From Syntrophales bacterium (GTDB taxonomy: Bacteria; Desulfobacterota; Syntrophia; Syntrophales; UBA2210), in contig CAXXKT010000001.1 of the NCBI GenBank assembly GCA_963662405.2, positions 2,016,001 to 2,080,000 of the forward strand: 64,000 bases of DNA, given 5' to 3'. Below are positions 42,801-48,800 of this stretch, piece after piece. A program made the position numbers. How positions within the stretch are numbered: the first letter of the stretch is position 1; every line of letters begins with the position of its first letter.

Positions 42801-45800
42801 AACGCAGACAAGCATGAAGAATGCGGGTATTGCGACGCATATGCTCTATGAAGCGATTAATCACGCCCATAACCGTTACCTGTATGGCAAGAGAGTGACG
42901 GACATGCCGCATATCAAGAGAGGATTTCTGGAAGCCTGGAGCCGAATCGTGATGAGCAGGTTGTATAACTATCGTGCCGTCGATTATTTCCGTCAGGCGG
43001 ACAAGGAGACGGATCGTCGGTACTTATTGTTTAACCCAATCCAGAAAGCACGTTCAGGGGCGCAATGTGATCTGGCCGTTACCATCATGCACAACATCAT
43101 GGCTGCCAAGGCATATGAAACAGATACATTTGCCGAGACAGCCGTACGTCAAATCGGCAACTCTGTTCGCCTCGAAGGGACAGCTCATGTCAATCTGTCT
43201 CAGGCAGTCAAATTTATCAATAACTACTTCAATGACAATGTAGATTTGCCTGAAGTTCCAGACGGTAAGATGGTGAAGGATGATTCTTCGAGCATGTTTG
43301 ACCAGGGCTTCGGCAAGGTCAAAAACATCAAGTTTAATGATTACCGGAAGGCATTTAACGGGTGCACACTTCCTAATGTGAAAATATTTCTCGAGCAGGC
43401 TGAAGCGCTCAAGGAATTTAACAATTGCTCACCCATGACCAAGGATCAGGTTAAAAACTCTGATTTTATGCTGAGTATTGCTGAGATCTTTGCCGTTGTT
43501 GTCTACGGCCAGCTTGTGTTCGAAAAAGCCAAGTTGGAAAGTATCGAAGATATGGTTGTTGATCAACTCTTCAGCTATTTGGTCCGTGATATTAACAGTT
43601 CTGTTATGCGCCAGATCAATGAATACGCCGGCCACTTTCAGGCAGGCCAGAAAGAAGGTCTTGCGGCTATTATTAAAGATCCTCACATTGATTTTGTGCG
43701 TGAAGAGGCTATCCTGACCGATTATATCTTGGCACTCGATGGTGCTTATAGCAGTACGTATGGAGTCGTTATCAACGAGTGAACTGATTGACAAGATGTC
43801 TGTTCATCCAGCTGTTTTGTACAGAGAAAGCCACACGTGCTTTCACCGTATGGCTGAATGGACAATGATATCTACTTCAAACGCTGAGAGAGTCAACGTG
43901 AAAACACATACAGCAGCGGCGTTTCAGTGCGGTTTTGTGAACAAGGTAGTCGTGCCCGAACGGCTCGATGACGAGGCGTATGCAATAGCTAAGGAAAATT
44001 TCAATCACGCACTGTATGGTCTTTTAGAGCGTCAACTCGAACTGGAACGGGATGGCATGATCAAGGCCGGAAGAACGACGGATTCGAAAGAAGGGTTTGC
44101 TGCATTTCTGGAAAAACGGAAACCACACTTTGCAGCAAAATGAGACATTATACACAGAGGCTGAATCAAAAAAGATCAGATATCTGGACAATGAAGAAAA
44201 GGAGCTTGGGTAGTGTAAAAGAAAGGTCGCAATTTGAGGTATTGTCAGAGGCCATCGATATCTCCTAAAAAGGTGTCAGCGAAGACACTTGGGAAAGGAG
44301 ACAGAGCGATGGCCCGGAAGTATGATACCGCGACGTAAAAGAAATTACTACTGCATTTCATGGGAGAATCGGATCCGTTATATGCGATGCTCCAGTGGTT
44401 GACACAGCGGATGATGGAAGTGGAATCGGAGATAAAAGTGGGAGCGGCCAAGGGGAAGCATACAGATGAGCGGACGACGCATTTTTCAGGGACCCGAGTT
44501 CGGCGGTTTGATACCCGGTTGGGGGCCTTGTATCTGTTGGTTCCGAAGCTTCGCCAGGGTGGGTATGTTCCCTTCTTTGTCACGGAGAAGAAGCGTTCCG
44601 AGCAGGCGCTGATCCAGGTGGTACAGGAGGCATTTATCAACGGTGTCTCTACCCGGAAGATGGAGCGTCTGGTCCAGTCCCTGGGGATTGAGGGGATATC
44701 AGCGAGTCAGGTATCGGTGATGGCGAAGGAACTGGACGACCAGGTTTCCTGGTTTCGATCCCGGCCCCTGGAGCGAGAATATCCCGTTATCTGGCTGGAC
44801 GCCCTATATGAGGATATCCGGTTCGACGGTCGAGTGACAAGCATGGCGGTTCTGGTTGTTGCCGGGATCACCGTTGAGGGACGTCGTGATATCCTGGCCT
44901 GTGAGCCCATGATGACCGAATCGGAAGAGACCTATCGAGCGCTCTTTGCCAATCTCAAGAGACGGGGAGTGGAGAAGGTCTGGCTGTGTGTTTCTGACGC
45001 TCACATCGGTTTAAAGAAGGCGGTTCGGAAGGCATTTCTCGGGTGCAGTTGGCAGCGATGCAAGGTTCATTTTATGCGGAACATTCTGGCTCACATTCCC
45101 CACAGAGAGAAAGACTCCTTTGCTGCGAGATTGAAGGCCATCTGGCTGCAGCCCACAAAGGAGACGGCCCTCCAGGTAGCCCGGATGGTGATCGATGAAT
45201 ATCGAGATCGTTTTCCGCAGGCCATTACGATCTTGGAAGAAGGTCTGGAGGATGCCCTGCAGTACCTGTCATATTCCTCATTCGATCATCGGAAGATCAG
45301 CTCCACCAACATTCTCGAACGTCTGAACCGGGAGATTCGGAGGCGGTCACGGGTTGTGGGGATCTTTCCCGGCATGGACTCTTATATCCGACTGATCACT
45401 TCGTATCTGATTGAGTACAGCGAAGACTGGTCGACAGGAAAATGTTACATCAAACCGTCACTCATCGAGGAGAAAAGAGAGTCGCTACAAAGGGTGGCGT
45501 AACAGGGAAATATCGATGACCTCATGAATTGAAATTGCGAACATTTATTGACGTGACCAAGCTTGAGCGGAAGTTATTCAATTGAATATAAAAGAAAAAT
45601 GGTATCTGCTGCAGAGGCCGCCGAGAAGCGGGACATATGGACGAGGAGTAATAAGATAACATAGAAAAAACATAGAGAGAAGCATCTGCGATAGATCACT
45701 CATTGTCTTTTCTGGAAAACTCAACTGCCGGGAAAGGCATCTTTTCTGACCGCCGGACAGGAAAATGTCCGCATTCCTGTCCGGCATTTATGAAATACCC

Positions 45801-48800
45801 CGCAGAATACCCCGTCCTGTGGACGGGGATGAATGCGGAGCAGGGGCAGGGGGGATGCAATCCCCCTCATTTAAGCTTTTCAGATGCCCCGCCCTGTGGG
45901 CGGGGTAATTCACGTGTGCCCGGCATGGGCAGCAGCTTGGAGGTGAGAGTCCTCTACAGGTCCTGATGGTGGAAACTGTTAGCCGAGGGCAAGGGCGTCC
46001 ATCGCGAGGTGGGGTCTGAAGGAAGCCGGAGGCAAAATCCCGATCCGAGGAACACGAATCGCATATCAGGCTGTATCATTGGGGCGAGCTTACGTGAGAA
46101 GGCGAAGCCCGTAGCCATCAAACGGTGATGCAGTAAATGCGGCGGATGCGGGGTGAAGGCGGCTGTTCTTACCCGGGGAGGTCTGGGAACCTGTCGGAGA
46201 CGACAAGGGGTTTCGCAAGGGACTCTGAACGGTTTCCAGAAGTCAGCAGAGGCCGTATTAGGTGTGGCGCAAGCCGGGCTGAAGGGCCGAACGTGTGGTC
46301 GGTGGTGAGACTCAAGGATTCGTGGTCGTGGAGATGCGGCAACTTTCATTATTCGATGAAGGCCTTCTGTCATGTTTGAAGGGTGAAGCCCCGAGGAGAG
46401 ATGGGAGGAGGTATCAAGCGGCGGCGGCATTGGAGAGATCCGAACCCATCATGGTTGACCTGATGCAGGAGGTAGTGAACAGGGAGAACGTGATTCGCGC
46501 ATGGAAACGAGTCAGGGCGAACAAGGGGAGCCCCGGCATTGACGGGATGACCGTCGATGAACTGACGGATTACCTGCGGGAACACTGGCCGCGGATTCGG
46601 GAGGAGTTGTTGACAGGGGAGTATCGCCCCCAACTGGTGAAAGAAGTAGTGATTCCGAAGCCGGGAGGCGGGACCAGACGGCTTGGTATCCCCACGGTGA
46701 CGGATCGATTTATCCAGCAGGCAATTTTGCAGGTGCTCGATCCCCTGTATGATCCGACCTTTTCGGACTACAGTTATGGCTTTCGTCCTCGTCGCCGTGC
46801 TCATCAGGCGGTGAACCGAGCGAAGAGATGCATATCTGAAGGATACGAATGGGTGGTCGATATTGACCTGGAGAAGTTTTTTGACCGGGTGAACCATGAC
46901 ATCCTCATGGGGAGACTGGCCAAGAGGATCGGTGACAAGCGCATTCTCCGGGTTATTCGTCGGTATGTGCAGGCCGGGATCATGGTCAATGGGGCCGTAC
47001 AGGAAAGGTGGGAAGGGACGCCGCAGGGCGGACCCTTATCGCCGCTGCTGGGCAACATTCTTCTGGACGCACTGGACAAGGAGTTGGAACGGAGGGGTCA
47101 CCGATTCTGCCGGTATGCGGACGATGTGAACATCTATGTCAAGTCTCAGCGCGCCGGGAAGAGGGTGTTTGAATCCATTGAGGCATTTTTGCTCAAGCGG
47201 TTGAAGCTTCGGGTGAACCGGGACAAGAGTGCGGTAGCCCGATACCATGAGCGGGGATTCTTAGGATTCGGCTTTACCTCCGGGAAACTCCTCAAGATCA
47301 AGCTGACGGGCAAGGCCCTGAGGAACTTCCGGGACCGAGTCCGGGCGATCACGAGGCGATCTCGGCGCGTCTCCATCAACCGGATAATCGAGGAACTCCA
47401 GACGTATTTGAGAGGATGGATCGGGTATTTTCATCTGATCGAGACGTGGACGATTCTGCGGGATCTGGATAGTTGGATGCGCAGGAGGTTGCGGTGTTTC
47501 ATGGTCAAACAATGGGTAAACAACTGCCATACCCGTTATAAGAACCTGATCCATCTGGGAGTAGGGAAAGATCAGGCGCGTATCGCGGCAGGGTCAAGCA
47601 AAGGACCTTGGGCGTTGTCCAACATGAAACCGCTGAAGATTGCTTTGTCCAATCGGTTTTTTGCCGAACGGGGTTTTCTTGGACTCTGGGGTCAGGCTCA
47701 AACATTGGGCAAGACTACATGAACCGCCGTGTACGGACCCGTATGCCCGGTGGTGTGGGAGGGGAAGGCCGTGAGGCCTTCCCCTATCCCGATTTGGTAA
47801 TCATGGCAGATACCTCCGCAGAAAATGAGGTTACCGTGATTACCCCACCCGCAGGGCAAGATAATCCAATTCTATTTTTCATAAAAGAAAAGAAATCTCC
47901 ATTTTTAGCCCCTATCCTTTCAATGATGATCATATTTAATAGTCATTATAAGGTCATTATTTGGGAGTTCCCTTTTCCAAATCCATAGCATAGGCTGCAT
48001 TTCCATAGAGAGATGCGTCGTGTCTGAAGAGTGGTAAACAACATTTTTTTTAAACATGTAGTGGATATATGTTCGTTAACGGAAATTGTAAAAGAGGAGC
48101 ATGGTATGGAGGCGCAACCCTTTAAGGGAATAAAGATTCTCGATTTATCGAATCATATTAGCGGATCATTTTGCACGAAGCTTTTTGCGGATTATGGGGC
48201 GGAGGTTATCAAGATCGAGAAGCCGGGCAGGGGAAGCCTGACACGTTGCATGCCGCCGTTTGTAGATGATGTGCCTGATGTGAATAAAAGTGTTCATTTT
48301 CTGTATCTGAATACGAACAAGAGAGGAATTACGCTCAATCTGAAATCAGATACCGGGAAGAAGATTTTTGCACAGCTGGTCCAGAGTGCTGACATCCTGG
48401 TAGAGAGTTTCGCTCCGCAAGTGTCGTCGGATCTTGGATTGGAGTTCGACGCGATAGAGAAGCTGAACCCCTCGTTGGTTATGGCCTCGATTTCGAATTT
48501 CGGGCAAACGGGGCCTTACCGGGATTTCAAGGCTTCCGATCTGGTTGAGTATGCCATGGGAGGGGCGATGTTCCAGACTGGTCTCCCCGACAGAGAACCT
48601 CTGACCAAGGGACCAAACTCTCTGCTTTTCGAGGTGGGGACGCAGGCGTGTTACGCCATACTCGGGGCTTATATGGGTGCGAGGCGAGATGGCATTGGTG
48701 ATTATATCGACATCTCGATCATGGAGACTCAACTTGCTGGAGCTGACCGAAGAAGTGCGAATCTGCTTACGTATCAGTACACTGGTGATGTGACCCGTCG

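Follow-up and report, generated by a model that had tools for sequence, protein, structure and literature searches.

Bacterial group II introns have three target specificities, homing sites, terminators and attC sites, according to a 2015 review (PMC4424553). Those of class C carry the boundary consensus GUNYGCCNRGCAUGG ... CCUACYCGAU, as given in an excerpt of PMC4028801. One class C sub-lineage, IIC-attC (S.ma.I2 type), is a specialist for a different mobile system, whose single-strand hairpin it targets, and enters the bottom strand of attC at TTGT/T (excerpts of PMC7923331 and PMC4424553). The intron described here appears to be specialised in the same manner, on the IS200 right end (TCAC/T type), where it follows the last base of the top strand. 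With the terminator-targeting introns B.h.I1 and GsI-IIC it shares class C ends, a short domain V with its CGC triad, an endonuclease-less reverse transcriptase (RT) and maturase, a 5′-exon hairpin, a short IBS1 and a one-base IBS3. It differs from them in its target, where the hairpin belongs to a transposon end and a C/A-containing tail replaces the T-run, and in its EBS1, which is GUGA where theirs is mostly A-rich.

Other introns are also linked to IS200-type elements. The F4 introns of Thermosynechococcus elongatus are group II introns of the IIB type that lack an ORF and are not hairpin-guided IIC introns. They occur repeatedly at a conserved site of the IS200-family element ISEL1, and are described as lying inside it (PMC2882425, in excerpt). 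IStrons likewise tie a self-splicing intron to such an element, joining a group I intron and an IS (IS200/IS605 or IS607) as one unit (PMC4227781, in excerpt), whereas the present intron is an autonomous group II retroelement that inserts outside the IS and moves independently. At IS608-type ends a four-base guide 5′ of each hairpin pairs with a four-base cleavage motif (excerpts of PMC3201880 and PMC5934647). The same layout is found here, in elements that differ from IS608 in being tnpA-only, in their guides (AATA/GATG) and motifs (TTAT/TCAC), and in including single-hairpin remnants of 46–48 nt. Consistent with the first-pass annotation of this DNA, the literature searched, with subscription papers outside its reach, nowhere describes IIC introns located at the ends of IS200/IS605 elements.

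A group IIC intron in four copies

We analysed a stretch of 64,000 nucleotides (the window) from contig C1 of a Syntrophales bacterium; window position 1 is C1:2,016,001. Four copies of the intron lie on C1, starting at 2061914 (+, the window copy), 2294174 (+), 2552834 (+) and 271777 (−). The count given in the first-pass annotation is thus correct, but the position that it took for the start of the last copy, C1:269898, is the 3′ end. The copies measure 1880 or 1881 nt and are 99.95–100% identical. In sequencing run X1, probably from the source sample, a single unbroken intron contig carries an extra C, so the length difference is probably an assembly error. Contigs of the same run cross the 5′ junction with a one-letter variant that fits TTCTC. 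One contig of run X10 that joins both flanks (45793 to 47792) was set aside for want of the intervening letters, and only 5–9% of the words were present in RNA runs.

Features of the intron and its target (window coordinates)
Feature	Position	Strand	Basis
Co-oriented Mutator/IS256-family transposase gene, upstream context	44360..45502	+	gene and domain identification
Left cleavage motif TTAT (the target), in host DNA immediately before the element	45788..45791	+	fits guide AATA under the IS608 pairing rule
Non-autonomous IS200 derivative, 122 nt, ORF-less: left and right ends joined by a spacer	45792..45913	+	fold (z −3.8), homology
Left-end guide AATA (45806–45809) and left hairpin (45810–45828)	45806..45828	+	left-end layout of the L004 IS200
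Right-end guide GATG (45883–45886) and right hairpin (45887–45905)	45883..45905	+	right-end guide of the L004 IS200
TCAC, predicted IS right cleavage motif and intron IBS1	45910..45913	+	guide GATG 3/3; EBS1 4/4
Group IIC intron, 1880 nt	45914..47793	+	four copies; Rfam RF02001 and RF01998; ends match class C consensus
EBS1 (GUGA), loop of a covarying domain I hairpin	46094..46097	+	covariation
RT/maturase, 462 aa, YADD, N-terminal QLSLF	46334..47722	+	RVT_1 and GIIM
Domain V (short) and domain VI	47723..47791	+	fold (z −6.0)
IBS3, first 3′-exon base, T	47794..47794	+	T in 4/4 copies and in all six distinct 3′ ends of relatives

As judged from its sequence, the window copy is an intact group IIC intron. 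Its 5′ end matches the class C consensus in full and its 3′ end departs from it slightly, which bears out the fit claimed earlier. Short domain V structures with a CGC triad are a class C feature; here the triad lies at 47725–47727, and the domain VI bulge contains A47786. The 5′-exon hairpin, an EBS1–IBS1 pairing of 3–4 bp and a one-base IBS3 are class C traits as well. The putative EBS1 hairpin is 97.5% paired across alignment cells, with both sides changed in 12 of 18 pairs, and its GUGA loop pairs 4/4 with IBS1. The 3′ ends of relatives comprise seven rows with one duplicate.

The reading frame is already open from a GTG at 46295, upstream of the maturase ATG, and many homologs have 462 residues and the same start residue. 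As in other class C proteins the endonuclease domain is absent. The closest solved relative is the GsI-IIC RT (E 4.8e-140), and a protein tree nests the intron among terminator-type introns.

That the ORF is intact and the four copies are nearly identical suggests recent mobility. A search of 30 relatives with the 3′ flank gave no empty orthologous site. The G-rich strand of C1, which we read as the lagging-strand template, carries all four copies (chance 1 in 16).

IS200-derived elements as targets

Each copy is directly preceded by a CCCC...GGGG hairpin and a tail that ends in TTCAC (two copies) or TTCTC (two copies). The hairpin and TTC(A/T)C ending reported earlier therefore hold for all four, but not the tail of 6–7 nt: it measures 8 nt from the GC foot, and 6 nt if the stem is lengthened by one G-T and one T-A pair. 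Two copies do lie behind miniature elements, of 122 and 110 nt instead of 115; 106 nt of the window element recur identically before the copy at C1:2294174. The other two follow single-hairpin remnants of 47/48 nt, which are of IS200 origin but are not full right ends as had been proposed. The non-autonomous derivatives are presumably PATE-like.

The ends of the elements that precede the introns match those of an intact, intron-free IS200 of the same genome (C1:266187–266795) and those of the intact IS200 in L004. As claimed, miniature elements without introns exist: diverged relatives of the window element lie empty at C1:903879 and C2:356892. TTTAT, the host sequence before the window element, is also found before the intact IS200 at C1:266187 and before four more elements of the miniature or remnant kind. 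Located on the opposite strand, that IS200 is the best-looking target and carries no intron. Two palindromic hairpins in the genome are likewise empty. TnpB (PF07282) has no match in the genome and every full element seen carries tnpA only, so the label IS200/IS605 stands as a family name but the tnpB-carrying IS605 group does not apply.

In the window the right hairpin doubles as the 5′-exon hairpin of the intron. Scored by the IS608 pairing rule, guide and cleavage motif fit 3/3 there and 2/3 each at C1:2552834 and C1:271777. At the latter, taking out the intron by itself or together with the remnant gives a convergent gene a stop in the same codon, and therefore this comparison does not place the remnant boundary. 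The junctions show the intron directly 3′ of the predicted right cleavage motif, on the top strand of the element and outside it; hairpin, guide and motif therefore remain intact. To judge by what lies upstream of the introns, IS200 derivatives act as targets whether they are full, miniature or reduced to a single hairpin.

Junctions in other genomes

A junction set was assembled separately from the metagenome loci of the first-pass annotation. It holds 18 non-self junctions from 12 other sources. Loci L103 and L110, which scored below some controls, were included after inspection of their flanks; L014, L017, L020, L067, L129, L426 and L437, which lack a 5′ junction, do not enter the counts, and the pattern hits L293 and L297 were discarded as fortuitous. 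A tnpA gene lies directly upstream at 13 of the 18, compared with 2 of 145 control rows, and is absent there at five. In 12 relatives 17–90 nt separate its end from the intron. The Y1 transposase domain (PF01797) is present in L004, L015, L016 and L019. The top eight non-self rows by 5′-RNA score (one a duplicate) all show a hairpin followed by TCAC, TGAC or TCAT.

The guide/cleavage rule is satisfied at 15 of 21 scored junctions (no hairpin was scored at L298) and at 12 of 137 controls. The clade junctions are not independent, coming from related introns with several per genome. When motifs were shuffled among junctions the mean was 6.2 and the maximum 13, and 15 was reached in none of 5000 shuffles. 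Because of this fit, we place the intron at the predicted right-end cut site of IS200. Six of the 21 do not fully follow the rule, among them two of the four copies here; L443, added later, also follows it. The tails are TCAC (9), TGAC (4), TCTC, TCAT and TCAA (2 each), CTAT and TTAC (1 each).

Neither of the known IIC target types accounts for these sites, in agreement with the earlier claim. A terminator-type hairpin with a T-run tail occurs at none of 22 clade junctions, no terminator-like site was called at the window junction, and no tail among the 21 resembles the attC-type TTGT/T. Viral contigs yielded only control-type introns, and none of 120 loci from a pattern scan had an intron match. 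Among the matches listed from plasmid and phage collections a close relative was absent; three plasmid introns that were examined lie behind non-IS hairpins. When 400 more genomes from the phylum to which G402 belongs were scanned with an EBS1-hairpin pattern, none matched.

The intron proteins form a clade of 13 (FastTree support 1.0); L021, whose best protein segment is under 250 aa, was excluded from the tree. All nine members with a 5′ junction lie at IS200-type ends, and the closest relatives of the clade follow terminator-type or other hairpins. The matches listed include at least 120 protein clusters at ≥66% identity, and all 40 that were sampled fall in the clade. EBS1 is GUGA in nine of ten clade introns and GUGU in one; GUG* occurs in none of 100 controls. 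These data support a change of EBS1 in the clade to match IS200 ends. Through wobble, GUGA can pair 3–4/4 with T-rich tails, and EBS1 alone therefore fails to explain why the clade lacks terminator tails.

Discussion

The first-pass annotation proposed a IIC lineage at IS200 right ends and called it a new target class. Both proposals gain support from the clade at such ends or remnants in 13 sources (this genome included), the guide-rule fit and the matching EBS1. We consider it very probable that this class C lineage is specialised on IS200-family right ends, which it would reach by retrohoming that uses hairpin and EBS1.

The mechanism is likely the ordinary IIC one, retuned to IS200 ends. 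By analogy with other IIC introns, intron RNA would arise where transcription of tnpA, or of a gene further upstream, reads through, a possible source in the window being the Mutator/IS256-family gene, and would splice with its own maturase. The ribonucleoprotein would bind the GC-rich DNA hairpin, single-stranded at the replication fork; EBS1 would pair with the four bases ending ∼8 nt beyond the hairpin foot and EBS3 with T. Reverse splicing would follow, then copying primed by the nascent strand, without an endonuclease. GUGA suits IS200 ends because the cut motifs have mostly A at position −2 and T at position −4, opposite its U and A, and both Gs accept C or T. Each IS200 move would give the intron new intergenic landing sites and leave the IS unbroken.

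A bolder scheme, which we think unlikely, has the lineage parasitise IS200 transposition, with active delivery to the cut site via TnpA at the right end or a shared beta-clamp dock. Excision of the IS would leave the intron behind a TTAT/TTAC target, with which GUGA still pairs 4/4; on any TnpB-carrying elements that such introns reached, insertion would fall where the omega-RNA guide begins and so change the guide. Assistance by TnpA in itself, whether by binding or cutting the right end or through meeting at the beta clamp, would set insertion at the cut position. This fits a junction that follows the predicted cut motif across seven variants while EBS1 stays GUGA, even with 3/4 pairing, and terminators that go unused although pairing would permit them. 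A QLxL/F motif at the N-terminus of 10/10 clade proteins, with similar motifs at many neighbouring TnpA C-termini, and the binding of IS608 TnpA to DnaN (PMC5027513, in excerpt) point the same way. However, a fixed hairpin distance gives the identical position without TnpA, and the QLxL/F-type motif is also present in 38 of 105 control proteins. Two recent identical copies lie behind remnants whose guide does not fit, and two behind TCTC, and TnpA cleavage therefore looks unnecessary. We regard its assistance as quite unlikely.

The pattern could also be a sampling effect, produced by a generalist IIC intron for which IS200 ends are merely available hairpins. Terminator-type introns too are found ∼220 nt behind tnpA (L037, L256), and 22 non-independent junctions are few. 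Yet this genome offers 78 strong hairpin plus TCAC/TCTC sites, most of them non-IS200 by inspection, and 28 strict terminator-like sites; all four copies chose IS200-family ends and none a terminator. With a clade-specific EBS1 and no T-run tail in the clade, this very improbable explanation is already largely refuted. A composite of IS200 derivative and intron travelling together, as in IStrons, is suggested by the miniature piece that two copies share and is the least credible, since the intron lies beyond the right cut motif, follows three different elements here and different IS200 families within single genomes elsewhere (near-identical introns in G848, G404 and G402), and has different bases after each of its four copies, which share no second right end; elements without an intron also exist.

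Specialisation on IS200 ends would add a further target specificity to those of bacterial group II introns, in a sizeable lineage. One mobile element would exploit the single-strand hairpin and cut position of another as a renewable safe harbour. The natural swap of EBS1 allows determinants of IIC specificity beyond base pairing to be tested, because GUGA could pair with T-runs and yet T-run sites are unused. In practice, the start of the intron may also be used to mark precisely where IS200 elements that lack annotation have their right end.

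The intron and its copies

The window contains a group II intron that folds with a short domain V (CGC) and a domain VI bulge, and whose two ends agree with the consensus for class C (PMC4028801, in part). Its open reading frame encodes RVT_1 and GIIM and no other domains, and the nearest solved protein is the GsI-IIC RT. The genome carries four copies (C1:2061914+, 2294174+, 2552834+ and 271777-) that are 99.95-100% identical, and one further, unrelated RT gene. Immediately 5′ of every copy is a GC hairpin followed by a tail of 8 nt whose last bases are TTCAC or TTCTC, confirming the four hairpin-plus-TTC(A/T)C sites of the first-pass annotation, although the tail had been given there as 6-7 nt. 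In each case the base 3′ of the intron is T and a co-oriented gene lies 140-410 nt upstream.

Contigs of X1, probably the source sample, include a junction variant that differs by one letter and fits TTCTC. The 1880/1881 length difference among copies is probably an assembly error, because a single unbroken X1 contig spanning the intron has the extra C. At C1:269898, a convergent host gene (locus L433, 878-1408) takes its stop codon from the antisense strand of the intron 3′ end, gaining two residues. An unrelated group II intron among IS remnants (window 27922-29435; RF02003 at 27952-28092) has a 355-aa RT frame with an early stop and is apparently 3′-truncated.

IS200 elements and their remnants

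The genome has 13 Y1_Tnp matches, 12 of them above the cut-off, and no TnpB profile match. The complete IS200 is ordered as target TTTAT, 15 nt, AATA, hairpin, tnpA, GATG, that hairpin again, AGCT and TCAC. Two intron copies do follow gene-less miniature elements, as had been claimed, but these measure 122 and 110 nt, not 115; the 110-nt sister likewise keeps the intact layout. The remaining two adjoin remnants of 47 and 48 nt comprising TTAC, a left-end-like stretch that ends TTTGCAG as in the intact IS200, one hairpin and a right-end tail. Thus the claim that all copies occupy IS200/IS605 right ends holds for IS200-derived ends, two of them single-hairpin remnants. Such remnants could arise by deletion between the directly repeated hairpins, and are possibly a minimal non-autonomous element.

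Features of the intron and of IS200-derived sequences
Feature	Location	Strand	Remarks
Group II intron	window 45914-47793	+	Rfam RF02001 and RF01998 matches
122-nt element	window 45792-45913		layout of intact IS200 minus gene
Complete IS200	C1:266187-266795		609 nt; without intron
Remnant	C1:292705		46 nt; intron-free
Miniature elements	C1:903879 and C2:356892		intron-free

Single-hairpin remnants of 46-48 nt lie behind TTAC/TTAT at C1:271778-271825, 2552787-2552833 and about 292705. Two perfect, REP-like palindromes, formed from the IS200 hairpin and bearing TTCAC on each strand, are intron-free (C2:149225-149260 and C1:2490923-2490959). Three longer Y1 proteins (C3:146004, C1:2080325 and C2:220215; open frames of 225-284 aa), which we take to be RAYT-like, have short flanking inverted repeats.

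The junction coincides with a predicted cut site

Each IS608 hairpin has on its 5′ side a four-base stretch that pairs with the cleavage motif (GAAT/TCAA and AAAG/TTAC; PMC5934647, in part); the pairs include C-3:G-35 and T-4:A-34, and T-4 also contacts A-2 (PMC3201880, in part). We scored 21 junctions (4 from this genome and 17 from elsewhere) by this guide/cleavage rule, permitting four guide offsets and inferring the third pair from the two IS608 examples. A hairpin is present in 20 of the 21, and 15 satisfy the rule 3/3. When motifs were shuffled among the 20 hairpin junctions, 6.2 fitted on average and 13 at most, and 15 was reached in 0/5000 trials. Of the controls, 12 of 137 (112 with a hairpin) satisfy the rule, often where A-runs precede T-runs.

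Guide and motif co-vary: GATG, GAAG and GAGG occur with TCAC, CAAG with TGAC, GAAA and GATA with TCAT, GAAT with TCAA, AAAG with TTAC, and AGGA with CTAT. T-4 and A-2 are constant across the 12 aligned junctions, and L443, a junction found after the main scoring, also satisfies the rule. The misses are both remnants in this genome and loci L021, L127 and L428 (2/3), plus L298, for which no hairpin was scored. The intron junction is therefore, as read from sequence, the predicted IS200 right cut site.

A trait of one intron lineage

Relatives were gathered by protein or intron-RNA similarity. In a FastTree tree of 132 proteins, 13 form one clade with support of 1.0, and all 9 members with a junction lie at IS200-type ends; when every third of 120 homologs was added, 40/40 fell inside. 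Loci L103, L110, L295, L298, L421, L422, L424, L428 and L443 were placed by RNA similarity, outside the tree, with L103 and L110, which have lower 5′-RNA scores, included after inspection of their flanks. When 156 junction rows were ranked by 5′-RNA score, the best 8 from outside this genome (one a duplicate) all had a hairpin and TCAC, TGAC or TCAT, and most lower-ranked rows had T-runs or other hairpins. A tnpA gene lies directly upstream of 13 of 18 junctions outside this genome (10 genomes and 2 metagenome contigs; L127 and L443 judged by eye), compared with 2 of 145 control rows. In three genomes the intron is present behind more than one IS200 family. IS200-end targeting is thus a trait of the lineage.

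Named hosts include Deltaproteobacteria, Desulfobacterales, Eubacteriales and Aminicenantales. The clade is scarce, occurring in 3 of 400 further genomes of this phylum and 0 of 400 sampled from another. In one member (L444 2229-3806, genome G407), the intron is split ~105 nt after its start by inserted DNA that codes for a transposase-like protein of 525 aa, and the upstream tnpA frame reads across the right end to a stop within the intron. Two terminator-type IIC introns outside the clade (L037 1971 and L256 950) likewise follow a hairpin, ~220 nt past a tnpA match, an arrangement from which IS200 specialisation may have begun.

Target recognition

A covarying hairpin carries EBS1 within its loop; this hairpin is 97.5% paired, with both sides changed in 12 of 18 pairs (slid controls, ≤43%). 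The EBS1 sequence is GUGA in all but one of 10 clade introns, the exception having GUGU, and it starts GUG in 0 of 100 controls. The intron would reverse-splice into the IS200 end, with priming steps to follow, a scheme for which Robart 2007 and Mohr 2018 reportedly provide part of the basis. IIC introns lack EBS2 and depend on DNA stem-loops (PMC8643678, in part). GUGA can also pair with 3-4 of 4 bases in T-rich tails, and the genome offers 78 strong sites of the hairpin+TCAC/TCTC kind as well as 28 that are strictly terminator-like, yet the intron occurs solely at IS200-family ends; an additional determinant must therefore exist, which could be the shape of the hairpin, the distance, the protein or TnpA. 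Insertion does not seem to need cleavage itself, because recent copies adjoin decayed ends. TCTC is common to two separate sites in this genome and found in 0 of 18 other junctions; one guess is conversion between copies.

The intron protein probably starts at window 46334 with QLSLF (46334-46354), a beta-clamp-type motif. Similar motifs occur in 10/10 clade proteins, 63/82 full-length homologs and 38/105 control class C proteins; the motif supports action at the replication fork but, being shared by those controls, says nothing for target specificity. TnpAs near clade introns often have a similar motif at their end. On C1 the G-rich strand carries every one of the four copies, whereas the intact intron-free IS200 is on the opposite strand. 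Reading the G-rich strand as the lagging-strand template, this arrangement, expected by chance 1 time in 16, gives a faint hint of the preference for that template described for IS200/IS605 elements (PMC5027513, in part).

Relation to known targets

In the portions available, reviews and surveys give terminators and attC sites as the only class C targets (PMC4424553, PMC7306698, PMC12584367, PMC3522654 and PMC7923331). Nothing relevant to IIC introns at IS200 ends appeared in the accessible parts of PMC4227781, PMC4853749 and PMC6542083 or in a term search of PMC10691335, and such introns are unreported in the literature searched, as partially accessible and mostly excluding subscription papers and supplements. 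The closest precedent is the F4 introns of T. elongatus (PMC2882425, in part), which differ in lying inside ISEL1. The new target proposed by the first-pass annotation stands for IS200-family ends, given the fit to the rule and the upstream tnpA genes; its IS605 label can serve as a family name, as this genome has no TnpB match. IS200-end targeting is well supported as a real new target specificity inside a known intron class.
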